Below are positions 1,760-61,233 of a stretch of 64,000 bases of DNA, one piece after another. Source of the stretch: a virus (Duplodnaviria; Heunggongvirae; Uroviricota; Caudoviricetes); the IMG/VR virus record IMGVR_UViG_3300023179_004209, positions 231,832-295,831 of that record. One strand, 5' to 3'. The notes below the pieces were generated by a model, which saw only the letters and a program-made list of their open reading frames with translations, ran no database searches and was not told the origin of the DNA. Position numbers and translations under genes: made by a program. How positions within the stretch are numbered: the first letter of the stretch is position 1; the number at the start of each line of letters is the position of its first letter.

Positions 1760-1768
1760 ATTTCCACG

Positions 1769-2002
1769 ATGAAGAACATCAATAAGTATAACGAGCGTAT
1801 TACCAAGTATAACGAGCGTATTACCAAGAACTGGAACGACTATTGTGATAAGCTTGAAGACTATTGCCGCCGTCGGCAAACCAAGAACCGCATCGCTGCC
1901 ATCCGCAAGACCATCAAGTATGTCAAGACGGGTGAGGCTGACAAGGAACTGGCTCTTCTCCTCAACCACCAGACAAGTATGCCTAAAAAAAGTTCACGAT
2001 AA
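1769..2002 (+). CDS. basic small protein with tandem KYNERIT repeat, GC-rich 3' half
   Basis: ORF behind promoter. Confidence 0.55.
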   Translation: MKNINKYNERITKYNERITKNWNDYCDKLEDYCRRRQTKNRIAAIRKTIKYVKTGEADKELALLLNHQTSMPKKSSR

Positions 2003-10041: not shown

Positions 10042-10064
10042 CCCCTAGGATAAAGCCATAGGGG
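10042..10064. repeat. IS end hairpin CCCCTAGG-ATAAAG-CCATAGGGG (right end, overlaps tnpB stop)
   Basis: 8-bp stem with A bulge; near-identical copy at 11323-11345. Confidence 0.6.
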
Positions 10065-11211
10065 CTTGTAATGCTGTTGCTTTCACAACAGGCTTACATA
10101 CATTTGGCTGGTTGACGACAGCCTGCCCGTAAGTCAGGTAATTAGTCTGTGATACGGGAAGTTTGGACAATTTAGCAATATTGATTGCCGCATTAATGTC
10201 CGCATCATAAATAAGTCCATTCTTAGAGTAAAATCTACAACCTCTTCTTTCTCCATCACGATTTCCAGTTACACTATCAATCTGTGATGTATAATAAGGG
10301 CGAACTAGTAGAACCAATTTACCTTGATTCTCTGCCTTATAGCTTATTACTCTACGAAGTTCAAATATTGGAACTTGTCCAATTGAACGCTTATTTTGAT
10401 ATTTATTTTTTTTCTTTTTTATACCGACAAGATTTTCAAGCACGATTGTATCTGCTTCTGTGTTTAAAACTTCATTAGCAATCAAATGTGTTTGATTTCT
10501 ATTTTTGTTAGATTCTTTATGTTTTAACTTACGAAGATGTCTTCTGGCACTTTTAGTGCTTTTGGATTTGAGACTATCTTTTAAATGTCTCAATCTACGC
10601 TTATCTCCATTAAACTTTCTATCAATAATTATTCTACCATCACTACAAGCTGCATTACGACGAATGCCGATATCTACTCCTAAAGCGAGTTTTTGTTTTA
10701 ATGGTTCTTTAGGTTTATTATCAAATGTAAATGATATAAATAATTTACCATCATTTTCATAAATTAGAGGATCTGTATATTCATATTTGTCCAATAATTC
10801 CTTTAGTTTAGGATACACTACAAATTTAAATGATTGTCTTCCAGAAGTAGTAGTTATACGGATTGAATATTTATCAGTTTTGTTTTTTGAATAAAGTCTT
10901 TTATCTAAACGCATGGAAAGGTTTTTCTTTTCAATTGATTTTTTTAATCTGTGTTTATTTGACTTTGTAGATTTATAACTTGATAAACATTCTTGTTCTG
11001 CTTTAATAATAACTTGTGATGGTATATTTGGATATTGTTTTCTAATGTTATTATAAACTTTAGAATGTAAAACTAACAAACTATTTTTTGTTTCATTGAA
11101 TTGATGTTGTGAAGCAAAATTAAATACAACTTTATGCATTTCAAGAATTGACTTTAAACTATCAAAGTCTTCTTGATTTTTCATTAAAAGTTGTGTATTA
11201 TATGATATCAC
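10045..11211 (-). CDS. tnpB: TnpB (OrfB) RuvC-like RNA-guided nuclease family protein
   Basis: RuvC-I GVDIGIRRNAA, RuvC-II IVLENLVG, RuvC-III YDADINAAINIAK; zinc-finger Cys mostly lost. Confidence 0.75.
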   Translation of the reverse strand: MISYNTQLLMKNQEDFDSLKSILEMHKVVFNFASQHQFNETKNSLLVLHSKVYNNIRKQYPNIPSQVIIKAEQECLSSYKSTKSNKHRLKKSIEKKNLSMRLDKRLYSKNKTDKYSIRITTTSGRQSFKFVVYPKLKELLDKYEYTDPLIYENDGKLFISFTFDNKPKEPLKQKLALGVDIGIRRNAACSDGRIIIDRKFNGDKRRLRHLKDSLKSKSTKSARRHLRKLKHKESNKNRNQTHLIANEVLNTEADTIVLENLVGIKKKKNKYQNKRSIGQVPIFELRRVISYKAENQGKLVLLVRPYYTSQIDSVTGNRDGERRGCRFYSKNGLIYDADINAAINIAKLSKLPVSQTNYLTYGQAVVNQPNVCKPVVKATALQAPMALS

Positions 11212-38519: not shown

Positions 38520-39019
38520 TGATTAAATTATCTCAATTAATAAATGAATTAAAATTGACAAATGATATGCGTATTCATATGTCAAAGAATCCATTTGAAT
38601 TGGAACAAAGAACATTCAAACAAAACATTGGAATGAAACCATTTGGATTTTGGTATGGTTTTGGTAGTGAATGGATTGACTGGACACGAAGTGAAGTGCC
38701 GGATTGGGTTGGTAAATACATTTATAGTGTTGATATTGGAAATTCCAATGTATTACAGATAAATACCCATATGGAATTGATGCAATTTAACCGTGAATAT
38801 CAATCCAATATAAGTGGTATTGGACATAGAAGACTAGAAGGTGAAGTAATTGACTGGAAAAAAGTTGCTGATAAGTATGATGGTATAGAAATCAATCCAT
38901 ATCAATTTGAAGCTAGATATCAATATTTATGGTATTATGGTTGGGATATTGCAAGTGGGTGTATATGGAATTTAAAGAATGTTAAACTAAAGTTGTTAAC
39001 TGATAAAGGAATAGAATGA
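38519..39019 (+). CDS. protein with N-terminal MIKLSQLINE (propeptide candidate 4)
   Basis: ORF. Confidence 0.6.
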   Translation: MIKLSQLINELKLTNDMRIHMSKNPFELEQRTFKQNIGMKPFGFWYGFGSEWIDWTRSEVPDWVGKYIYSVDIGNSNVLQINTHMELMQFNREYQSNISGIGHRRLEGEVIDWKKVADKYDGIEINPYQFEARYQYLWYYGWDIASGCIWNLKNVKLKLLTDKGIE

Positions 39020-39537
39020 ACTTGATTACAGAAAATAGACACAGTGAATTTGGTTGTTTAATGGCTATAGTTGAACCAACCAGAGGACCACACATCATTA
39101 AATTTGGTAAAACAATAGTACCACCACAAATTCTTTATACTGATCCAAATGATAGTAGCTATGGTTATGATGATGAACCACACATTACAGCTAAGTATGG
39201 TTATTCTCCTGACTTAACAAGAGCTAATTTAGCCACCATTCTACAAGGTATCAAACCATTTATTGTTAAACTTACTGGTTTAACCCAATTTCAAAATGAA
39301 AAGTATGATGTAGTCAAGTTTGATGTAGAAAAGAATGAGATATTATCTGAAATAAGACGAAGATGCGATTGTTATAAGAATGAGGATAAATACCCAGATT
39401 ACAAACCACATATGACATTGGCTTATGTACAAAAAGGTAAGTTTCCTCATATTAAAGAAGGATTAAACATATCTGTACCAGTCACCAGATTCAAATATAG
39501 TGGTCAAGACGGTAAAAAATTATACATCAATTTGTAA
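39016..39537 (+). CDS. 2H phosphoesterase superfamily protein (LigT / cyclic phosphodiesterase-like)
   Basis: two H-x-T-x motifs (EPHITAKY and KPHMTLAY) about 85 aa apart. Confidence 0.6.
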   Translation: MNLITENRHSEFGCLMAIVEPTRGPHIIKFGKTIVPPQILYTDPNDSSYGYDDEPHITAKYGYSPDLTRANLATILQGIKPFIVKLTGLTQFQNEKYDVVKFDVEKNEILSEIRRRCDCYKNEDKYPDYKPHMTLAYVQKGKFPHIKEGLNISVPVTRFKYSGQDGKKLYINL

Positions 39538-44804: not shown

Positions 44805-45170
44805 ATGGACTTAATAACTAAATTCTTAACTCTACATAATCAATTGAAGGTTTACCATTGGCAAACTGACAGCTATGCACAACACCAAGCTTTCGGTGGT
44901 GCTTATGATGAATTCACAGGATTGATTGACCAATTCATTGAAGAATTCATGGGTAAATATTCAAGAATAATGAATAAAGAAGGATTCAAAGCAGTATCAT
45001 CTAACATCACTGATAAAGATCCAGAGAAATTCATTGAAGAATATATAACATTCCTCATTGTTGAATTGCCTAAAGGTCTAAGTGAAAAAGACACAAACTT
45101 ATTAAACATAAGAGATGAAATGTTGGGCGAATTACAAAAACTCAAATACCTACTCACACTAAATAAATAA
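44805..45170 (+). CDS. hypothetical protein
   Basis: ORF followed by terminator. Confidence 0.5.
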   Translation: MDLITKFLTLHNQLKVYHWQTDSYAQHQAFGGAYDEFTGLIDQFIEEFMGKYSRIMNKEGFKAVSSNITDKDPEKFIEEYITFLIVELPKGLSEKDTNLLNIRDEMLGELQKLKYLLTLNK

Positions 45171-45196
45171 CACTAGAATACAATAAAAAATTTCTA

Positions 45197-45232
45197 AGTC
45201 TGAGTAGGATAAAACTTACTCAGACTTTTTTA
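45197..45232 (+). terminator. Rho-independent terminator AGTCTGAGTA..TACTCAGACT + TTTTT
   Basis: 10-bp stem. Confidence 0.75.
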
Positions 45233-45266
45233 TTGACAAAATTAACCGTCAAACTATCATAACCAT

Positions 45267-45470
45267 ATGAAAATCAAAATGTTAAAAAATATTGATGTAG
45301 ACATTGACAAAACCAAACTCCAAGAAGTTTGGCCAAAATATCTCCACCGCAATGATGTTTTTAATGTTGACAAAATTGAAACCATCTGCGAAGATAAAGT
45401 CAATCTGGTACTAGACAACGGAGATGTCCTACTTGAAGTACCAAACAAGTCATTCACTCCAGTTTTTTAA
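45267..45470 (+). CDS. hypothetical small protein
   Basis: ORF. Confidence 0.45.
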   Translation: MKIKMLKNIDVDIDKTKLQEVWPKYLHRNDVFNVDKIETICEDKVNLVLDNGDVLLEVPNKSFTPVF

Positions 45471-45478
45471 AAAAAGTG

Positions 45479-45507
45479 TTGACTACGATCAGTTTCAATG
45501 GTAAATT
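45479..45507 (+). promoter_or_regulatory. promoter TTGACT-N17-TAAATT for tRNA-Arg
   Basis: immediately upstream of tRNA. Confidence 0.55.
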
Positions 45508-45530
45508 GATCATGTTCTTTAAATCATAAT

Positions 45531-45606
45531 GTCCCTATAGCTCAAACGGATAGAGCATCTGCCTTCTAAGCAGATGATCCAGGTTCGATTCCTGGTGGGG
45601 ATACCA
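45531..45606 (+). tRNA. tRNA-Arg (anticodon TCT)
   Basis: hand-folded cloverleaf. Acceptor GTCCCTA/TGGGGAT with wobbles; D-stem GCTC/GAGC; anticodon arm TCTGC-CTTCTAA-GCAGA; T-arm CCAGG-TTCGATT-CCTGG; A+CCA. Confidence 0.7.
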
Positions 45607-45668
45607 TTTTTTGAACATATTTATAAATTTGTATATATTTATATGTTCAAACTTCTCTAAAAAAGAAG

Positions 45669-45696
45669 TTGATTCTTTGAAAATTTGCGGTAAGAT
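45669..45696 (+). promoter_or_regulatory. promoter TTGATT-N17-TAAGAT followed by the AGTAGTAAGT..GTTCTTT motif
   Basis: one of four promoters in the RNA cluster followed by GTAGTAAGT. Confidence 0.45.
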
Positions 45697-45823
45697 AAAG
45701 AAGTAGTAAGTAATTTGTTCTTTCAGCATGGTGGGAGAAGCACTCCTCTAGAACATCTTCGTATGGCGGAACTGCCTTGACCTTTAATCAAAGGGGGTCA
45801 CCAACGAAAGAAACAAATTACTG

Positions 45824-45852
45824 TTGACAAAAGAATAAATCGTGGTAAGATA
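45824..45852 (+). promoter_or_regulatory. promoter TTGACA-N17-TAAGAT followed by AGTAGTAAGTTCTTTAAAA
   Basis: as above. Confidence 0.5.
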
Positions 45853-45936
45853 AAAAAGTAGTAAGTTCTTTAAAATAAAAATATGAAAGTAAAGGATTAC
45901 TAATCTTTTGCTTATAATGTATAATATATATTCTAT

Positions 45937-46368
45937 ATGGAACATAGTAAACAAAAAGGCAATTTAGGATTTTCTGCAACTCTCAAAGAATTACATAAAC
46001 TTGGATATAATGTATTTACTGAAGTTGGAGATTACTCTAAAATAGATATGATAGTTGAGGTAAAGAATAAATTAATTAAACTTCAAGTTAAATACATTAC
46101 GGATTCAAATGGAAAAGTAACTTTAAACTTACAAAAAAGTGGACCAAATGGGTATAGATACAAGTATACAGAACTTGATATAGATTTGTTCAGTATTTAC
46201 TTACCTACTTTAGATAAAGTAATTTTTGTACCTGCTAAATTAGCTTGTAAGAATACTAAAGCATTTAGCATTAGATTTAATGAAAGTAAAAATCATCAAA
46301 GTAAACATATTAATTATATAAGTGAATTTGAAGATTTAAATAAAACACTAAACAATTTAGTTCTTTAA
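45937..46368 (+). CDS. hypothetical protein embedded in the tRNA cluster
   Basis: ORF; stop codon lies within the GTTCTTTAAAA motif. Confidence 0.5.
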   Translation: MEHSKQKGNLGFSATLKELHKLGYNVFTEVGDYSKIDMIVEVKNKLIKLQVKYITDSNGKVTLNLQKSGPNGYRYKYTELDIDLFSIYLPTLDKVIFVPAKLACKNTKAFSIRFNESKNHQSKHINYISEFEDLNKTLNNLVL

Positions 46369-46375
46369 AATTTAT

Positions 46376-46451
46376 GGGATTGTAGCTCAATTGGCAGAGC
46401 AGTTCGCTTTTAACGAATTGGTTGACGGTTCAAGTCCGTCCGGTCCCACCA
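46376..46451 (+). tRNA. tRNA-Lys (anticodon TTT)
   Basis: GGGATTG..CGGTCCC acceptor; anticodon loop CTTTTAA; T-arm GACGG-TTCAAGT-CCGTC; A+CCA. Confidence 0.7.
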
Positions 46452-46457
46452 TTTAAT

Positions 46458-46532
46458 GGCGTTATCGTCTATCGGCTAGGACACTGGACTTTCACTCCGG
46501 TAAGAGGGGTTCGATTCCCCTTAACGCTACCA
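46458..46532 (+). tRNA. tRNA-Glu (anticodon TTC)
   Basis: GGCGTTA..TAACGCT acceptor; anticodon loop CTTTCAC; T-arm GGGG-TTCGATT-CCCC. Confidence 0.65.
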
Positions 46533-46721
46533 TTTTGTTTGTCCGTTGCTTAAAAGAAACGGAATGGTGGAGGGTAAATAACCAAAACACCCCTAGAGTT
46601 GGAAGTTCTCTTAAAAAACTTCTTGGTTGCGGGGATGAGTCATGGTATACTTTGTTTGTTGGGTGGACAAAGTATTCAATAAACACACCCAACACAATTT
46701 ATATAGTTCTTTAAAATTCAA

Positions 46722-46878
46722 TAGCTGGCGGCAGGTTAGATCTGGGGGTGGCTCATAACCATTCATTAAGTAGGTGCGATTCCTATGCTTCAGCAACCAT
46801 TTGAATGGCTGGGGTTTCAGCAAACGACGAATCCTCATAAGGTTTGTTAAGTGGGGGCAGCACCCATACCAGCTACCA
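46722..46878 (+). ncRNA. tRNA-like / mini tmRNA-like element (acceptor-like stem + T-like arm + CCA; internal GCA AAC GAC GAA TCC TCA TAA)
   Basis: 5' TAGCTGG pairs with 3' CCAGCTA followed by CCA; hairpin GTGGG-GGCAGCA-CCCAT; exact 12-mer of canonical tmRNA tag start at 46820. Confidence 0.3.
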
Positions 46879-46970
46879 TTTACGCCCGGAGAATATCCGA
46901 TCAATACGCAACACGGAAAGAAACCTCCTCTAAAGGGAAACTTGCTAGTAGCGGGCGACGATTTTAGATG

Positions 46971-46998
46971 TTGACAAAACATCAATGTGTGATAAGAT
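46971..46998 (+). promoter_or_regulatory. promoter TTGACA-N16-TAAGAT
   Basis: drives short RNA ending at terminator 47109-47141. Confidence 0.5.
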
Positions 46999-47004
46999 GA
47001 TTTT

Positions 47005-47141
47005 AAGGTTAGTTGAGTCCGTTACCTTAGATTAAAAACTCAACAGTGTTTGATCAGAGCTTCTATAATAAATGATCTCTCGACCAGTAGATAGCTGGTT
47101 ACATTTTCAGTGGTTTTGAAGATAAAACCACTCGGATTTTT
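47005..47141 (+). ncRNA. putative small RNA between promoter and terminator
   Basis: hairpin GTTGAGT..ACTCAAC and terminator hairpin AGTGGTTTT..AAAACCACT + TTTTT; no ORF. Confidence 0.4.
47109..47141 (+). terminator. Rho-independent terminator
   Basis: 9-bp stem + CGGATTTTT. Confidence 0.6.
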
Positions 47142-47166
47142 AGTTAGTTCTTTAACAAAACAATTT

Positions 47167-47252
47167 GCGGGGTGTCAGAAGTCTGGTATCTGGCTACGCT
47201 CATAACGTAGTGCCATTTGGCCTCGGAGGTTCAAATCCTCCCCCCGCTACCA
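47167..47252 (+). tRNA. long-variable-arm tRNA with anticodon CAT (identity uncertain)
   Basis: D-stem CAGA/TCTG; anticodon arm CTACG-CTCATAA-CGTAG; 14-nt variable arm; T-arm GGAGG-TTCAAAT-CCTCC; 6-bp acceptor GCGGGG/CCCCGC; ends ..TACCA. Confidence 0.5.
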
Positions 47253-47258
47253 TTTAGT

Positions 47259-47350
47259 GGCCTCAAGATGTAAGGTGCATGGGGAGACTTATAATCTCTA
47301 TAATCGCTCGATTGGCGTTCTGGGCAGTTCGATTCTGCATGAGGCTACCA
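47259..47350 (+). tRNA. type II tRNA, Leu/Tyr-like body with anticodon loop CTTATAA (apparent anticodon TAT)
   Basis: acceptor GGCCTCA/TGAGGCT; anticodon stem GGAGA/TCTCT; long variable arm; T-loop TTCGATT; A+CCA. Confidence 0.5.
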
Positions 47351-47529
47351 TTTTTGATCGTGTAATGGAATTAGACATACGGATGATGGGTAGCACAAAG
47401 TTACGTTACTTGGAGTGGTTTCCAAGTGTAGTTGAAGCAAATTGTGTCCATCAGACGGGTGCTAGATATAGTCTAACCAACCTTGAAACTAGTTGTGGGT
47501 ATTCCAGTCCCACCACGATCACATTTTAC

Positions 47530-47613
47530 GGGTGTGTGATGTAATGGCAGCCATGCAGCACTCAAAATGCTGTGGAGAAATCCGTGGGGGTTCAAGTCCC
47601 TCCATACCCACCA
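47530..47613 (+). tRNA. tRNA-Leu (anticodon CAA)
   Basis: acceptor GGGTGTG/CATACCC; anticodon arm CAGCA-CTCAAAA-TGCTG; long variable arm; T-loop TTCAAGT; A+CCA. Confidence 0.6.
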
Positions 47614-47660
47614 TTTTTATTGTTCATTGAAAATTAGTAGACGCAAAGTAATTTGTATTT

Positions 47661-48350
47661 ATGTCTTCCAAAATACTACTTATTAGTATGAAAAAGATAG
47701 ATATACAAGAGTTAACAATTGCAACAAAAACATCTATATCATACGCTGAAGTTTTAAAAAAGTTAAGACTGAAGCAAAGTGGTTCAATGCAAAGTCGTAT
47801 TAAGAACGAGATTAAAAATCTTGGACTAGATATTAGTCACTTTACTGGACAAGCGTGGTGTAGAGGTAAAAATTCTTATCAAGACAAAAGAATAAGAAAC
47901 AAATATTCTGATGAAATTATTTTTACTGAAAATAGTAATGTTTCAAACGTTGTAGTAAAAAACAGATTGAAGTCAAATCCAAATTATATACATAAATGTG
48001 AATTATGTTCTATTAAAGAGTGGTATGACCCGTTTGAAAACAAAATCAAACCAGTAAATTTAGAACTTGACCATATAAATGGCAATGAAAGAGATAACAG
48101 AAAAGAAAATTTAAGATTGATTTGTTCTAATTGTCATAGTTTTACTCCTACATATAAAGGGAGAAACATTAATAAAACTTTTAGAAATGGTGAAAAGAAA
48201 ATATCTGATGATGTTTTGATAGAACAATTAAAAACAAAAAACATAAGACAAACTTTAATTTCAGTTGGAATGTCTGCTTCTGGTGAAAATTATGAAAGAT
48301 GTAAAATTTTGAAAAACCAGTTGACAACAAAGAATGATGTGGTAAGATGA
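47661..48350 (+). CDS. HNH homing endonuclease inserted between tRNA genes
   Basis: ELDHINGNERDNRKENLRLICSNCHSF HNH motif. Confidence 0.7.
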   Translation: MSSKILLISMKKIDIQELTIATKTSISYAEVLKKLRLKQSGSMQSRIKNEIKNLGLDISHFTGQAWCRGKNSYQDKRIRNKYSDEIIFTENSNVSNVVVKNRLKSNPNYIHKCELCSIKEWYDPFENKIKPVNLELDHINGNERDNRKENLRLICSNCHSFTPTYKGRNINKTFRNGEKKISDDVLIEQLKTKNIRQTLISVGMSASGENYERCKILKNQLTTKNDVVR

Positions 48351-48351
48351 A
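48323..48351 (+). promoter_or_regulatory. promoter TTGACA-N17-TAAGAT inside the 3' end of the HNH gene, followed by AGTAGTAAGT..GTTCTTTAAAA
   Basis: same architecture as 45824 promoter. Confidence 0.5.
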
Positions 48352-48387
48352 AGAGTAGTAAGTGATGGTTCTTTAAAAACTTTTAGT

Positions 48388-48476
48388 GGGCAAGTGGCGA
48401 AATTGGAGAACCGCAAGGGACTTAAAATCCCTTACATTAGAAACGCTGTGGGTTCGAATCCCACCTTGCCTACCAT
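48388..48476 (+). tRNA. tRNA-Leu (anticodon TAA)
   Basis: acceptor GGGCAAG/CTTGCCT; anticodon arm AGGGA-CTTAAAA-TCCCT; long variable arm; T-arm GTGGG-TTCGAAT-CCCAC; A+CCA. Confidence 0.65.
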
Positions 48477-48499
48477 TTTTTGATAGTTCTTTAACAATT

Positions 48500-48810
48500 T
48501 AAGATAGTGGCGGAACAACAATTAGTTTAGTTGTAACGCACAATATATGGCGTTGAAAAACGTTGTATATTGGTTGGAGTAAGAATCATGGAGGGTAAGT
48601 CTATGGAGAATTTGAGGTCGTTCAACCTCAAATTTGAGCGTATCGGGACCGTAGCTAAAATTTAAATGATAAATCGTAGCCCGTTGTGGGGAAAACAAAA
48701 TCCCATCAGTCATCAACACAAGGAGTAATTACCCGTGTGGACTGTGGATGAATAACCAGTCATGATTAAGAAACTTGGAGGTAATCATTAGTCCTTCCTA
48801 TTTTGATTTA
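48500..48810 (+). ncRNA. uncharacterized structured non-coding segment
   Basis: no ORF; hairpins GAGGTCGTTCAACCTC, CGTTGAAAAACG; preceded by GTTCTTTAACA motif. Confidence 0.25.
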
Positions 48811-48814
48811 ATAT

Positions 48815-48887
48815 GCGGGTCAAGTGTAAAGAGAGCACGTTAGTCTACCAGACTAAAAGGCGAAATGCAAAGTTCGGACCCGCTCCA
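48815..48887 (+). ncRNA. tRNA-like RNA lacking an anticodon loop
   Basis: 7-bp acceptor GCGGGTC/GACCCGC + T + CCA. D-like hairpin GTG/CAC. Middle arm is 6-7-bp stem TTAGTCT/AGACTAA with 3-5-nt loop. T-like hairpin CGAA/TTCG. Confidence 0.35.
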
Positions 48888-48897
48888 TTTTAGTAAT

Positions 48898-48990
48898 GGC
48901 TCTGTGATGTATGGTGCATGGGCAGACTTATAATCTGTATAATCCCTAGATTTGGGTGCTGATAGGGTTCAATTCCCTACGGAGCCACCA
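48898..48990 (+). tRNA. type II tRNA paralog of 47259..47350, anticodon loop CTTATAA (apparent anticodon TAT)
   Basis: acceptor GGCTCTG/CGGAGCC; anticodon stem GCAGA/TCTGT; about 24-nt variable region; T-arm TAGGG-TTCAATT-CCCTA; A+CCA. Confidence 0.5.
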
Positions 48991-49000
48991 TTTTAAATAT

Positions 49001-49112
49001 GGATCAATAGCTCAATTGGTTAGAGCGAAGAACTCTTTCTCTGCTTATAAACTAAAAGTATAAGTAGGAAATAATTCTTGGGTTATCGGTTCAAGTCCGG
49101 TTTGATCCACCA
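49001..49112 (+). tRNA. tRNA gene with about 35-nt insertion in the anticodon loop (possibly CAT anticodon after removal)
   Basis: acceptor GGATCAA/TTGATCC + A + CCA. D-arm GCTC-AATTGGTTA-GAGC. Anticodon stem AAGAA/TTCTT encloses 42 nt beginning CT and ending AA. T-arm ATCGG-TTCAAGT-CCGGT. Confidence 0.5.
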
Positions 49113-49115
49113 TCT

Positions 49116-49655
49116 TTAAAGATTAATTAATCCACCGTGTAATTCTCCATGACAGTTTCTGCATACAAGAATACACTTGTCAAGTTCAGTTTTTAATTTG
49201 TCAAAAGAATATGTTCTTAAATCGGAAATAGAATATTCTTTTTCGTTTGGATTGGTATGATGAAAATCCAATGATCCTATGTATTTATTATAACCACAAA
49301 AAACACATTTACCGCCTTTCATATCAACACATTTTTCCTTTAATTCTTTTTGCTTTTTATAAGCAATTTCATCATTACATTTTTTACACCAACTATGTAT
49401 TTTTCCATTTGAACTTATATAGAAATTATTTTTGTTTAATTCTTTTTGAGATTTACATTTTGGACATATTTTCAATTCAATTCCATTTTCATTTTTAATA
49501 ATTTCTTTTTTTCTAGTTTTATATATTGGTTTTGTTTTTAATCCAAATTTTTTCAACCAATGCCTGACTGTGGTTTGTCCTTTTCCTATACTTTTTGCAA
49601 TTTGATGCGTTGATAGTCCTTGTTCAATCATTAATGTCAAATCAGATTCATTCAT
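49116..49655 (-). CDS. HNH endonuclease with N-terminal HTH
   Basis: CRNCHGELHGG, FHHTNPNEKE, multiple CxxC; HTH QIAKSIGKGQTTVRHWLKKFG. Confidence 0.65.
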   Translation of the reverse strand: MNESDLTLMIEQGLSTHQIAKSIGKGQTTVRHWLKKFGLKTKPIYKTRKKEIIKNENGIELKICPKCKSQKELNKNNFYISSNGKIHSWCKKCNDEIAYKKQKELKEKCVDMKGGKCVFCGYNKYIGSLDFHHTNPNEKEYSISDLRTYSFDKLKTELDKCILVCRNCHGELHGGLINL

Positions 49656-49730
49656 AGTTCAATAAAGTTATATTTTACATTTATAAATATAAATGAACTA
49701 ATTGAAAATCGTTAAAATTATTCAATAAAA

Positions 49731-49760
49731 AACCCCGTCATTAATTTGACGGGGTTTATT
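49731..49760 (-). terminator. Rho-independent terminator (strong on minus strand)
   Basis: CCCCGTCA..TGACGGGG with A-run before and T-run on complement. Confidence 0.65.
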
Positions 49761-49771
49761 GCTTTATATGA

Positions 49772-50395
49772 TTAAGGATTGATTGGATCTGGTGGTGTAG
49801 GAGACATGATTGTTAATGTTGCTGGATTGCTTGTTACGGTTTGACCGTTGTTTCCAGAAACGATAACTGTATAAGAACCTGCGTCACTTTCTTGAACACT
49901 TGCAATTGTATAAGTTGAATTAGTAGCATCAACTATATTTGTACCATCTTTAGTCCATTGGTAAGATAGATCTGATGGACCACTTGCAACCACAGTAAAT
50001 GTTAATGATGAACCAGTTGGAACTGCTTGATTAGCTGGTTGTTGTACAATTGAAGGTGGCAACCAAGGTAGAGGTAGAATTACTACTGGTGGATTGATTT
50101 GATTATCAATTTGATTTTGAACATTGGTTTCGTAACTATTTTTTTGTTCAGTACCCATCGAATCCCAAACCCATCCAAGAACTTGATCTTGAGTTAATTG
50201 GTTATAAGGAGTAAATTGTGAACCAGAATGATATGTTACTCCTGTTGCGCCATAAACTCTACCATTATATGTGATATTATTTACTGTTTCGGAACCAACG
50301 CAGTCCCAATGAACTGTAAATACTACATCTGTGTTTTGTTCATATGTAGGATAACATTCTAATGTTCCCACTCTCCAATTAATTGTTGCGCTCAT
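49772..50395 (-). CDS. protein with C-terminal Ig-like domain (N-terminal domain paralogous to next gene)
   Basis: TGSSLTFTVVASGPSDLSYQWTKDG..DAGSYTVIVSGNNG I-set-like pattern. Confidence 0.55.
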   Translation of the reverse strand: MSATINWRVGTLECYPTYEQNTDVVFTVHWDCVGSETVNNITYNGRVYGATGVTYHSGSQFTPYNQLTQDQVLGWVWDSMGTEQKNSYETNVQNQIDNQINPPVVILPLPWLPPSIVQQPANQAVPTGSSLTFTVVASGPSDLSYQWTKDGTNIVDATNSTYTIASVQESDAGSYTVIVSGNNGQTVTSNPATLTIMSPTPPDPINP

Positions 50396-55672: not shown

Positions 55673-56764
55673 ATGAAGATTGACATTCAAAAGGTTGACC
55701 TCACCCAATTTATGGTGCATGAACATTCACTTAATGGTGAAATTGTCCAGTTGATTCAGCCCCAACATATTGGCACTAAATGGCATCAAGACAACAAGCA
55801 TATGCGTAGTGTAATTGTGAATTATGCAGGTGAAGTTATCAGTGCAGGTTTTCCTAAGTTTACCAACTGGGGTGAGAATCCTGATCACTTTCCTGTTCCT
55901 AATTCATTGAAGCATTGCACCGTTGTTGAAAAGCTTGATGGTTCATTGTTGATTGTTAGTAAGTATAATGGTCAATATATTCTACGTACCCGTGGAACTG
56001 TTGATGCTTCTACTATGGCTAATGGTCATGAACTTGAAATTTTCAAGAACACTATTTTATCCAAGTTGGCTGATAACAATGATACTTGGGATTATTCAGT
56101 GCTTTTTGAGTGGTTGTCTCCTATCAACAAGATTGTTTTGAACTACGGTGATGAACCTTCTTGGAGATTGATTGGGTTTATTAACCACATCAACTATTCA
56201 CTTGCACAACAAGATATGTTGGACGCTATGGCTAAGAAGTATGGATTTGATCGTCCTCCTACCTATACTTTTTCTGATGTTCAAGATCTGTTAAAGGATG
56301 TTGACCAATGGAGAGGTAAGGAAGGTGTAGTTGTTTATTCAAAGAATGACCAAATGCTTCACAAGGTAAAGGGTGCTTGGTATCTTGCTCTACATCATAT
56401 GAAGAGCGAGTTGTCAAACATTGAGAAGGTTATAGATGTATGGTTGGAACAGAGTATGCCTGACTATCAGACTTTCTATAGTTATATCTTTACCACCTTT
56501 GATTACGAATTGGCTGAACAGTGCCGTGGTATGATTAGCCGTATTTGTGATGCTAAGAAGGAAGTGGATATGATTGTGGTTGGTATGAATGAATTTGTGA
56601 ATAACAGACTCAAGACTCTACCTACTCGTAAGTTACAGGCTGAACAAGTAATTTCAGCTTATGGTAATACTAATAGAGCTTCATTTTTGTTCAAGTTGCT
56701 TGATGGTAAGTCGTTAGGCAAAGAAGAATATAAGAAGTTACTATTTCAAGTATTGAAAAACTAA
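55673..56764 (+). CDS. ATP-dependent RNA ligase, T4 Rnl1-like
   Basis: motif I EKLDGSLL (KxDGS as in T4 RnlA KEDGSL); later EGVVVYSK and HKVKGAWY. Confidence 0.6.
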   Translation: MKIDIQKVDLTQFMVHEHSLNGEIVQLIQPQHIGTKWHQDNKHMRSVIVNYAGEVISAGFPKFTNWGENPDHFPVPNSLKHCTVVEKLDGSLLIVSKYNGQYILRTRGTVDASTMANGHELEIFKNTILSKLADNNDTWDYSVLFEWLSPINKIVLNYGDEPSWRLIGFINHINYSLAQQDMLDAMAKKYGFDRPPTYTFSDVQDLLKDVDQWRGKEGVVVYSKNDQMLHKVKGAWYLALHHMKSELSNIEKVIDVWLEQSMPDYQTFYSYIFTTFDYELAEQCRGMISRICDAKKEVDMIVVGMNEFVNNRLKTLPTRKLQAEQVISAYGNTNRASFLFKLLDGKSLGKEEYKKLLFQVLKN

Positions 56765-60140: not shown

Positions 60141-60596
60141 ATGAGTACAATTTATATCGCCGTTGGATTGCCTGGAAGCGGTAAATCCACATACGCAAAG
60201 AACTTTATTAAAGGAAAAGACATTGAATACCTAAGTAGTGATGAATTACGAGCTGTATTTGGTAAAAGTGAAGAAGATCAAACGGTGACTCCACTTGTTT
60301 TTGGTCACATCAAAAGAAAGGTTGACGAATTTCTAAAAGATGGTAAAAATGTATTGGTTGATGCAACCAGTGTAAACCGTAGAGAACGATCTGATTACAT
60401 CAACACCGCAAAGAAATATGGCGCAAAAGTAATTGCTCTTGTTTTCAAGATGGATCGTGCTGGTTTGATTACACGAAATCAAAAGAGAGGTCAAGAAGGT
60501 GGCAGAGTTGTACCTGATTGGGTTATTGATAAGATGTTAACAAAGTATGAAGAACCTTCTACCAGTGAAGGTATTGATGAAATAATTTATGTTTGA
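60141..60596 (+). CDS. P-loop polynucleotide 5'-kinase (Pnkp kinase-domain-like)
   Basis: Walker A GLPGSGKST; size and context with phosphoesterase and RNA ligase. Confidence 0.6.
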   Translation: MSTIYIAVGLPGSGKSTYAKNFIKGKDIEYLSSDELRAVFGKSEEDQTVTPLVFGHIKRKVDEFLKDGKNVLVDATSVNRRERSDYINTAKKYGAKVIALVFKMDRAGLITRNQKRGQEGGRVVPDWVIDKMLTKYEEPSTSEGIDEIIYV

Positions 60597-61233
60597 AAGA
60601 CCACTAAAACTTATTCATAATGATGATCACCGTGTGTATTTCACCAGTGATACTCATTTTAACCATGATAAGGCTTTTATTTATGAAGCCCGTGGTTATA
60701 AAAACCGTTATGAACACAATGATGCTTTGATTGCAAAGATCAATGAAGTGGTGCGTCCAGAAGATACACTGTTTCATCTTGGTGATTTTTGTCTGAATAT
60801 TACTCCGCCTGAATTTGAATCGATTCTTAGTAGAATTAACTGCAATAACATTGCTTATATTTGGGGCAACCATAATAGTTGTATTCGTAGAGTCTATGAA
60901 GATTCGGTAACAACTCAATATGGTAGGGATGTGGAAGTATATCCATATGCAATTGGTAAACTCACTTATCTGGGTTATTACAAGGAAGTGATCGTAAATG
61001 GTCATATGATTGTTATACATCATTTTCCCCACCAAATTTGGAATCAAATGCAAAAGAATGCTTGGCAATTGAGTGGACATAGCCACTACACCAATCCAAC
61101 CACTCAAGTAGAATATCCAGACAATAAAATTCTGGATGTTGGTTGGGATGGTCACGGTAAACCGTTGTCATTTCCAGAGATTCAGAAGATAATGATGAAT
61201 AAAAATCATATCAAGCATGATAAACATCATTAA
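60589..61233 (+). CDS. calcineurin-like metallophosphoesterase (Pnkp phosphatase-domain-like)
   Basis: SDTHFNHD, HLGDF, WGNHN, HH, GHSH motif series. Confidence 0.6.
   Translation: MFERPLKLIHNDDHRVYFTSDTHFNHDKAFIYEARGYKNRYEHNDALIAKINEVVRPEDTLFHLGDFCLNITPPEFESILSRINCNNIAYIWGNHNSCIRRVYEDSVTTQYGRDVEVYPYAIGKLTYLGYYKEVIVNGHMIVIHHFPHQIWNQMQKNAWQLSGHSHYTNPTTQVEYPDNKILDVGWDGHGKPLSFPEIQKIMMNKNHIKHDKHH

Follow-up and report, generated by a model that had tools for sequence, protein, structure and literature searches.

How does a transfer RNA (tRNA) gene come to carry a 35-nucleotide (nt) insertion in the middle of its anticodon, and does the insertion ever leave the RNA? The question is raised by a gene at positions 49001–49112 (+) of a 64,000-nt stretch of the Caudoviricetes record IMGVR_UViG_3300023179_004209, a stretch called the window below, which is AT-rich (about 32% G+C) and phage-like. 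The gene consists of GGATCAATAGCTCAATTGGTTAGAGCGAAGAACTC, the insertion TTTCTCTGCTTATAAACTAAAAGTATAAGTAGGAA and then ATAATTCTTGGGTTATCGGTTCAAGTCCGGTTTGATCCACCA. The insertion is real and splits the anticodon CAT. It is tentatively read here as an endonuclease-linked intervening sequence which does not self-splice and needs proteins for its excision and for the resealing of the tRNA, a reading to which we give somewhat less than an even chance.

The gene belongs to the tRNA family. Every canonical element listed in a first-pass annotation of this DNA is present: the acceptor stem is GGATCAA/TTGATCC, the D arm is GCTC-AATTGGTTA-GAGC, the T arm is ATCGG-TTCAAGT-CCGGT, the variable loop is short (GGGTT), and the discriminator A is followed by an encoded CCA. 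The Rfam tRNA model RF00005 aligns over its full length (1–71) with a score of 55.1 bits, compared to a gathering score of 29 (E=3.9e-09), and the cloverleaf and the conserved nucleotides of the D and T loops are in place. The alignment has 39 nt where the model has four loop positions. The coordinates bear out the earlier statement that the anticodon stem, AAGAA (49028–32) with TTCTT (49075–79), encloses 42 nt (49033–49074) and not 7. ARAGORN misses the gene in its default mode; in intron mode it returns a 77-nt tRNA with a 35-nt intron.

Relatives of the locus were sought in public contigs by T-arm/acceptor sequence and then via neighbouring proteins. The related contigs (L numbers below) originate from freshwater metagenomes. 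The interrupted gene recurs in many independent assemblies, with more than 25 contigs (JGI, ENA, Logan) carrying the 35/36-nt hairpin, which excludes an assembly artefact. The sister phage contigs show that one gene exists in three states. In the uninterrupted state (L002, L025/26/27, L048, L057/58) the loop is CTCATAA and the anticodon is CAT. The insertion point in the DNA therefore lies between C34 (49035) and A35 (49071), and the ancestral anticodon was CAT, in agreement with the first-pass annotation, which had obtained CAT by removing the insert between positions 34 and 35. In the second state (L005, L006, L007 and a truncated copy in L009) the same exons are split after U33 by 257 nt ending in G. 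This insertion, taken from L005, aligns with Rfam Intron_gpI through conserved core segments, at a score of 29 bits (E=1.5e-5) which is below the gathering score of 50. The bond which it occupies, between positions 33 and 34, is one upstream of that of the hairpin, between 34 and 35. The third state, the hairpin, comprises five sequence variants of the interrupted gene: the window type (window, L010, L039–47, L091), the window type with one additional loop G (L089/90), an insert with a G bulge and a long loop in two exon backgrounds (L003/L008 and L070–77, counted as two variants), and a singleton, L001, with a G to A change in the lower helix.

No relative was found among GenBank phages by megablast over 45000–50000, and the sole distant GenBank phage match of the tRNA is a 29-nt stretch in a Stenotrophomonas phage tRNA-Met. 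A search of IMG/VR with the 5′ half for further alleles returned 12 matches, all in unrelated coding sequence. The T-arm/acceptor pattern, applied to bacterial genomes, gave two chance coding matches in Ktedonobacterales metagenome-assembled genomes, and neither a host copy nor a prophage; E. coli genomes contain nothing that matches the spliced sequence. A mature tRNA(CAU) would be either a tRNA-Met or a tRNA-Ile2.

In the predicted fold of the insert, four base pairs (bp) between UUUC (49036–39) and GAAA (49068–71) are followed by a 1-nt bulge (49040), then by 9 bp between CUGCUUAUA (49041–49) and UAUAAGUAG (49059–67), closed by a 9-nt loop (49050–58). The insert thus has a hairpin of its own, as claimed before, of 13 bp and not the 6 bp first given. 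The whole 112-nt RNA has a folding energy of −31.2 kcal/mol (z = −3.6), which none of 200 shuffled sequences reached. In this fold the acceptor, T and anticodon stems are retained, the extra nucleotides form a rod, and a 3×3 internal loop, CUC/UAA (CUC/AUAA in an alternative pairing register), separates the anticodon stem from the insert helix. The ends of the insert pair together and the exon ends would therefore be held together atop an intact anticodon stem, in the geometry of a nicked anticodon loop. Variation of the insert is confined to the bulge and the loop, except for one singleton; further alleles, sought via neighbouring-protein searches and contig look-ups to assess covariation in the hairpin, brought only bulge and loop variants and that singleton. 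No promoter or terminator was found within the insert.

A structure of this kind could also act as it stands. The 112-nt RNA may be functional unspliced, as a tRNA-like molecule with a rod-like anticodon arm, either as a decoy or inhibitor of a host anticodon nuclease or tRNA-modifying enzyme, or as a protein-binding regulator. The structure is stable and self-contained, the anticodon stem is still paired although the anticodon is split, and the window has many genes of counter-defence type (Macro, HD, 2H phosphoesterase, cyclases, RNA repair). However, a decoy has no need of the seven loop nucleotides, which are kept exactly, the other alleles of the locus are decoding tRNAs, either ordinary ones or ones with a group I intron, and the hairpin shows no covariation and has no identified partner. 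Such a function appears improbable.

The insert is not a group I intron. It was judged too short for one in the first-pass annotation, and this holds: it has 35 nt and lacks the core, RF00028 has no match at E≤1 in 45000–49600, and no group I intron reaches the gathering threshold in the 64-kb window. The boundaries do not fit either. The 5′ exon ends in C34 and not in U, the insert ends in A and not in G, and no register gives a U before the 5′ junction together with a terminal G while leaving a 7-nt loop. An internal guide is also missing, as there is no sequence that could pair with the 5′ exon. Small self-cleaving ribozymes (hammerhead, twister, pistol, hatchet, hepatitis delta virus-like) were also rejected, no family matching at E≤1 in 45000–49600.

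The insert might instead be the degenerate remnant of a group I intron which lost its core, now a scar or a substrate trans-spliced by another group I ribozyme of the phage. The sister phages do have a group I intron at the neighbouring bond, L001 has another one in its tRNA-Leu(UAA), and there is a short resemblance, AAAAGTATAAGTAG / AAAACTAT-AGTAG, to the intron 3′ end. Yet the insert aligns no better than shuffled sequences with the allelic tRNA(CAU) intron or with that of the L001 tRNA-Leu (p = 0.32 to 0.97), and the different insertion bond, the unsuitable ends, the missing guide and the lack of a group I intron at threshold in the window all speak against this origin, which we regard as quite improbable. 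The group I introns of these phages are themselves devoid of open reading frames (ORFs) and 257–258 nt long (tRNA genes at L005 501–834, L006 825–1158, L007 4253–4586 and L001 8269–8602). The one in the tRNA-Leu(UAA) of L001 lies between U34 and A35 and scores 71 bits against RF00028, and its 3′ end (GGTAGTGAAAACTATAGT...) is common to the tRNA(CAU) introns.

Introns of archaeal and eukaryal tRNAs are cut by a splicing endonuclease at a bulge-helix-bulge (BHB) motif, in which two 3-nt bulges on opposite strands, with a 4-bp helix between them, contain the splice sites (PMC4090602). The insert has a length typical of these introns and a loosely similar topology (an unpaired UAA by the stem on the 3′ strand, a 4-bp helix and a bulge on the 5′ strand), and a kinase and a phosphoesterase suited to end healing are encoded in the window. 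The motif itself is not there. Three unpaired nucleotides of the 5′ strand face the 3′ bulge, forming the 3×3 internal loop, and the bulge beyond the 4 bp has 1 nt (2 nt in L001) instead of 3, so that the two staggered bulges are missing. Cuts at BHB positions would leave 8–9 loop nucleotides and not 7 (checked by hand on the fold), and the insertion lies at 34/35 and not at 37/38. In addition, none of 60 window ORFs searched against Pfam matches tRNA_int_endo, in a scan that covered only larger ORFs from this part of the phage genome. A BHB intron is extremely unlikely.

Two further candidates were rejected. Excision by RNase III would, from geometric reasoning, remove anticodon bases and leave no 7-nt loop, owing to the 2-nt stagger of its cuts. 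The nested mobile mini-element proposed earlier, in the sense of a repeated palindromic element (similar to repetitive extragenic palindromes or miniature inverted-repeat transposable elements), was not borne out: the window has one copy at up to 3 mismatches, IMG/VR pattern scans find the insert only in this tRNA, plus a chance coding match in L004, and blastn-short over 377 kb of loci finds no second copy.

The exons, on the other hand, bear on whether the gene is maintained. No disabling change is seen in the exons of the hairpin alleles, and the loop nucleotides CTC and ATAA are invariant. In the seven distinct alleles 99% of the base-pair cells are paired, changes on both sides occur at pairs 3:70, 28:42 and 29:41, and none of 500 shuffles reaches the covariation score of these seven alleles. 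Among the hairpin alleles alone, pair 28:42 is A-U, U-A or G-C. The window and L039 have no difference over 48888–49113, with flanks that are 6–10% diverged. These compensatory changes and the conservation favour a gene under selection, which is not a proof. The slot that follows tRNA-Ile(UAU) is filled in every relative by some tRNA(CAU), drawn from three unrelated sequence families, and this occupancy is an indirect point for function. The upper anticodon stem has five haplotypes among six alleles, and the acceptor, D and T arms are nearly invariant; variation clustered in this way is what escape from an endonuclease would look like.

Endonuclease genes are indeed close. The interrupted gene is the last of a tRNA cluster (45531–49112) in which endonuclease genes are interspersed (Table 1), and the HNH gene next to it (49116–49655) is an insertion/deletion polymorphism among the relatives. 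An HNH gene of the same type (179 aa, phrog_2255) adjoins the 3′ end of the tRNA in hairpin alleles (window, L089–91) and in group I alleles (L005/7/9). A different one (133 aa, phrog_10822) takes this place in the hairpin alleles of L001, L003/8 and L070–77; in L001 (9618–10019, minus strand) it matches phrog_10822 at 1.3e-17, and the second HNH gene of the window cluster (47661–48350) falls in the same PHROG. No HNH gene adjoins an uninterrupted allele in any of the loci of that kind that were compared. Counted by distinct contexts, the tRNA is adjoined by an HNH gene in 6 of 9 interrupted and 0 of 4 uninterrupted cases (one-sided Fisher p ~0.05). This arrangement, in which a free-standing endonuclease gene lies beside the interrupted gene and is missing from the uninterrupted alleles, is the one described as collaborative homing. 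The third endonuclease of the window cluster belongs to the family of I-Ssp6803I, the homing endonuclease of a tRNA-fMet group I intron, which is specific for the anticodon region (PMC1995217). Homologues of both HNH genes also adjoin other tRNA genes. L039 and L040–45 carry the window-type hairpin allele without an adjoining HNH gene, and a SegE-like GIY-YIG endonuclease gene is found within their tRNA cluster (L039 6363–7067); across the related group, four endonuclease families occur in this one cluster.

In this process, alleles that lack the insertion are cleaved by a free-standing endonuclease; an ORF-less insertion placed where the enzyme cleaves confers immunity and is copied along (PMC2790892, PMC3984707). 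By analogy, the insert lies in the DNA of the anticodon stem-loop, a likely target of the homing endonucleases of the cluster. It would split the recognition site, as the ORF-less group I intron would in the sister phages, and the interrupted allele, immune to cutting, would be copied together with the neighbouring endonuclease gene. Collaborative homing is the standard explanation for the group I allele; the hairpin, on the next phosphodiester, would have the same effect at the DNA level.

At the RNA level, we infer that the insert folds on itself and brings the exon ends side by side over the anticodon stem, that a putative endonuclease would cut both junctions, and that the kinase/phosphoesterase and the Rnl1-type ligase of the phage would heal and seal the loop, giving a 77-nt tRNA(CAU), Met or Ile2. 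The RNA would then read ...GAAGAACTC up to the joint and ATAATTCTT... after it. The predicted spliced junctions are GAGCGAAGAACTCATAATTCTTGGGTT for the window type and GAGCAGTGAACTCATAATTCATCGGTT for the L070 type, as opposed to the unspliced junctions AACTCTTTCTCTGC and GTAGGAAATAATTC. In the case of a tRNA-Ile2, the insert might prevent the CAU anticodon from being joined before the modification of C34.

The anticodon depends on the register of excision: removal of 35 nt after CTC gives CAU, and removal after CTCT or CTCTT gives CUU. In the latter case the loop would be CUCUUAA and the gene would be recoded as a tRNA-Lys. This is the parse that ARAGORN gives in intron mode for all hairpin alleles, and the sequence permits it in every variant. 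But ARAGORN merely assumes a position close to the eukaryotic one, all the uninterrupted and group-I-interrupted orthologues read CAT, the insertion in CTC/ATAA is clean, and the cluster already has a tRNA-Lys(UUU). The orthologues argue for the CAU register, and a switch to CUU is very unlikely.

Rnl1-type ligases are the class of enzymes that reseal broken anticodon loops of tRNAs. The window encodes, as judged from sequence, a heal-and-seal set of the T4 type with an Rnl1-family ligase, a kinase and a phosphoesterase (Table 1). In addition, a 2H phosphoesterase (39016–39537) could be a cyclic phosphodiesterase or, equally, an anti-defence enzyme. These repair genes show a capacity and not its use. 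That the phage splices its own tRNA by proteins (a structure-specific endonuclease of the phage or the host, the kinase/phosphoesterase and the Rnl1 ligase), and that the insert stands for a third class of tRNA introns, neither ribozyme nor BHB, is put forward as a doubtful possibility. On this view the arms race with homing endonucleases would have led to the protein-spliced hairpin as a low-cost replacement of a group I intron.

Several observations weigh against the favoured reading. No endonuclease came to light that would make the two cuts, and the junctions fit no known splicing motif: a BHB, a U preceding the 5′ junction and a terminal G are all lacking. Covariation is absent from the insert helix, 12 of its 13 pairs being invariant among the known alleles, and the G to A change of the L001 singleton breaks the sole G-C pair of the lower helix. 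Large phages commonly have a ligase and a kinase for tRNA repair, and relatives whose allele is uninterrupted also possess at least the start of the ligase gene (window 55639–56000 matches L025–27). The association with endonuclease genes rests on few independent contexts. The relatives are only 6–25% diverged and heavily mosaic, so that the conservation of the insert and the differences between the stems could reflect recombination or homing and not selection. Finally, the cluster has other odd, possibly degenerate tRNA-like sequences, and dead tRNA genes may therefore persist in it.

The interrupted gene itself may be such a case. The hairpin would never be removed, the tRNA would be non-functional, and the allele would persist and spread only through its immunity and its linkage to homing endonuclease genes, or would be too recent to have decayed. 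No mechanism of excision can be named, and the close, mosaic relatives and the other tRNA(CAU) genes and tRNA-like relics of the cluster fit with a dead gene. The identical 112-nt allele is found in three different downstream contexts, as recent gene conversion would give, and the stem haplotype GGGAA/TTCCT is common to a hairpin allele (L003) and a group I allele (L005). In a mosaic family, with one allele in three contexts and a common stem haplotype, recent gene conversion can mimic conservation. On the contrary, none of the five hairpin variants has a disabling change and CTC and ATAA are retained exactly. Pair 28:42 lies 6–7 nt from the insert and has three Watson-Crick versions among the hairpin alleles; homing, as in the case of T4 introns, normally co-converts markers so close. 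The hairpin alleles are at least as common in databases as the uninterrupted ones, and the gene is located in a row of tRNA genes preceded by a strong promoter-like site. The main rival, a dead gene maintained by linkage, is judged possible and rather unlikely. The inactivated gene had been among the options of the first-pass annotation: the uninterrupted copies in related phages agree with it, and the intact exons with their compensatory stem changes do not. The mini-intron or processing substrate, named there as well, remains the best reading, without proof, so that the earlier interpretation as a whole is partly supported.

The closest precedent for an intervening sequence of this sort comes from the Lak megaphages. 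Devoto et al. (bioRxiv 10.1101/356790) described tRNAs of these phages with ‘enigmatic’, highly conserved introns which Rfam could not classify, and stated that phage tRNA introns had not previously been reported. In both cases insertions in phage tRNAs are not classified by Rfam, some relatives lack them and the splicing mechanism is not known. The Lak introns are identical in sequence across cohorts and one of them resembles a nested tRNA; the hosts are gut Prevotella, the phages exceed 540 kb, and the report connects these introns with neither homing endonucleases nor an allelic group I intron. The comparison is by description only. The finding is therefore best classed as an unclassified intervening sequence of a phage tRNA, of a kind that is known but unexplained, for which the Lak study is the sole precedent found.

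Group I introns are also found in anticodon loops of bacterial and phage tRNAs, for example in Anabaena tRNA-Leu, Azoarcus tRNA-Ile and Synechocystis tRNA-fMet, the latter with I-Ssp6803I (PMC3984707, PMC1995217, PMC13011429). The hairpin has in common with them the anticodon loop of a tRNA(CAU), the allelism with uninterrupted genes and the association with homing endonucleases, including the I-Ssp6803I family. It differs from them by its size (35 nt compared to more than 200 nt) and by the lack of the core, the U, the terminal G and the guide, so that it cannot self-splice by that chemistry. In the known cases of collaborative homing (F-CphI and psbA in cyanophage S-PM2; mobE and I-TevIII in T4; PMC2790892, PMC6083498, PMC3984707) an endonuclease gene also lies beside an ORF-less interruption and the uninterrupted alleles lack this gene, but the protecting element self-splices and the gene stays functional. 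The hairpin has no known way out of the RNA.

Other systems resemble the RNA side of the problem. Archaeal and eukaryal BHB introns (PMC4090602, PMC3400036) are likewise short hairpin insertions in the anticodon loop that need protein enzymes, and healing and sealing types are present here; unlike them, the insert has no BHB motif, occupies the bond 34/35 in a bacterial virus, and has no EndA homologue among the scanned ORFs. In T4, tRNA restriction-repair (PrrC; Pnkp and Rnl1; PMC3014915, PMC3400036) provides a similar ligase, kinase and phosphoesterase able to reseal an anticodon loop held by its stem. It mends a single nick inflicted by the host in a host tRNA, and no segment is removed. 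The intervening sequences of bacterial rRNA that are removed by RNase III (PMC8708148) are also helices inserted in a structural RNA, but the rRNA then stays in pieces, an outcome that would be intolerable for an anticodon loop. In SOS splicing (PMC12779559), hairpin-forming transposons are removed from animal mRNAs with RTCB, and here too the insertion is recognised by its paired ends; this process is known only in animals.

In bacteria and their viruses only self-splicing introns are known, while protein-spliced tRNA introns are archaeal or eukaryal, as restated in 2026 (PMC13011429). What this locus adds is a precisely defined point of insertion, a series of alleles with a group I intron among them, the context of homing endonucleases and the candidate sealing machinery. 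One locus in natural phage populations holds an uninterrupted tRNA, a group I intron, or a hairpin that does not self-splice in an otherwise well-maintained gene. If the hairpin is removed, there is a new splicing route, and the Rnl1/Pnk repair enzymes gain a natural role beyond countering host nucleases; no earlier case of tRNA splicing by proteins would then be known from the bacterial world. If the hairpin stays in the RNA, an arms race of homing endonucleases can fix an insertion that kills a tRNA gene. With a 112-nt RNA and three candidate endonucleases, the system is small enough for direct tests, and the locus may also explain the unclassified tRNA introns of megaphages.

Table 1. The interrupted tRNA gene, its neighbours and the RNA-repair genes, with positions in the window.
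Feature	Position	Strand	Evidence or remark
5′ exon of tRNA(CAU)	49001–49035	+	acceptor 5′ strand, D arm, AAGAA (49028–32), C32 U33 C34
35-nt insertion TTTCTCTGCTTATAAACTAAAAGTATAAGTAGGAA	49036–49070	+	own hairpin; absent from uninterrupted orthologues
3′ exon	49071–49112	+	A35 U36 A37 A38, TTCTT (49075–79), variable loop, T arm, acceptor 3′ strand, A73, CCA
HNH homing endonuclease, free-standing, 179 aa	49116–49655	-	PHROG phrog_2255 E=2.8e-34; stop codon 3 nt past tRNA CCA
Second free-standing HNH endonuclease in tRNA cluster	47661–48350	+	phrog_10822 E=3.2e-41
PD-(D/E)XK endonuclease, I-Ssp6803I family	45937–46368	+	Pfam PF11645 E=3.1e-20; PDB 2ost E=7e-4
tRNA-Ile(UAU), 93 nt, long extra arm	48898–48990	+	ARAGORN/Rfam; 10 nt upstream of the interrupted gene
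Sigma-70-like promoter, TTGACA-16-TAAGAT with TG	48321–48348	+	consensus match only
Bidirectional intrinsic-terminator-like hairpin	49730–49757	.	directly after tRNA in relatives without HNH gene
T4 Rnl1-type RNA ligase	55673–56764	+	Pfam PF09511 E=3.6e-15; phrog_562 E=3.8e-38; PDB 2c5u, 5tt6 (T4 RNA ligase 1) E ~1e-10
Polynucleotide-kinase-type P-loop kinase (end healing)	60141–60596	+	Pfam AAA_33 E=4e-26; phrog_505 ‘polynucleotide kinase’ E=5.7e-22
Phosphoesterase, candidate for 3′-end healing	60589–61233	+	phrog_547 E=5.2e-39; gene overlaps end of kinase gene
2H (LigT-like) phosphoesterase	39016–39537	+	Pfam PF13563 E=3.4e-10; weak Acb1 match

The promoter-like site and the terminator-like hairpin bracket the last four RNA genes and the HNH gene 49116–49655. 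This site could drive a tRNA-Leu(UAA), a structured RNA, the tRNA-Ile and the interrupted gene, the last two of which are probably co-transcribed.

The slot of the interrupted gene, after tRNA-Ile(UAU), holds another tRNA(CAU) in L067–69. There, a 222-aa PP-loop protein (PF01171, TilS lysidine synthase family; L067 1904–2572, minus strand; also L068 and L069) is encoded between an HNH gene and this tRNA. This neighbour hints that the slot holds a tRNA-Ile2, which is only a lead, and the window has no homologue of the gene. Yet another tRNA(CAU) family occupies the same slot in L083 (about 1762–1826, minus strand), L086 and L028 (3574–3650). In the L083-type tRNA the D loop has 13 nt and the T arm, GTCAG-GACGGATG-CTGAC, is non-canonical; this tRNA, too, is adjoined by an HNH gene.

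In bacteria, a long extra arm is normally a feature of tRNAs for Leu, Ser or Tyr. The cluster has tRNAs of 87–93 nt with a long extra arm and the anticodons CAT and TAT (47166–47252, 47259–47350, 48898–48990), and the 93-nt tRNA(UAU) is almost invariant in all relatives. Two tRNA-like sequences, at 46724–46799 and 46807–46878, have anticodon-type loops (CTCATAA/CCTCATAAGG), T-arm-like hairpins and ...ACCA ends. They are called by neither ARAGORN nor Rfam and could be degenerate or highly unusual tRNA(CAU) genes. Matches below the Rfam thresholds are found at 46533–46640 and 48492–48716, to the wcaG RNA (32 bits compared to 42) and manA RNA motifs, within long conserved non-coding stretches between tRNAs; the region 48477–48898 is 94% identical to L001.

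A stretch of 16 nt of the insert, AAAAGTATAAGTAGGA, is complementary to the coding strand of the RNA ligase gene (window 56257–56272, a minus-strand match) at 15 of 16 positions. The same antisense match is 16/16 in L023 and L024. It is perfect only in relatives which lack the tRNA in question, and for this reason it is probably a chance match in AT-rich DNA.

Elsewhere in the window, a gene of the TnpB/IS605 OrfB type (Cas12f1-like TNB domain, OrfB_IS605) is found at 10045–11211 on the minus strand. Accessory genes that are unusual for a phage (24216–25991, 41568–43007, 26026–27453, 7024–7512 and 6485–7048) encode an ankyrin-repeat protein with a cyclase domain, a second adenylate/guanylate cyclase, an amidoligase, a Macro domain and an HD domain, and probably have counter-defence or signalling functions.

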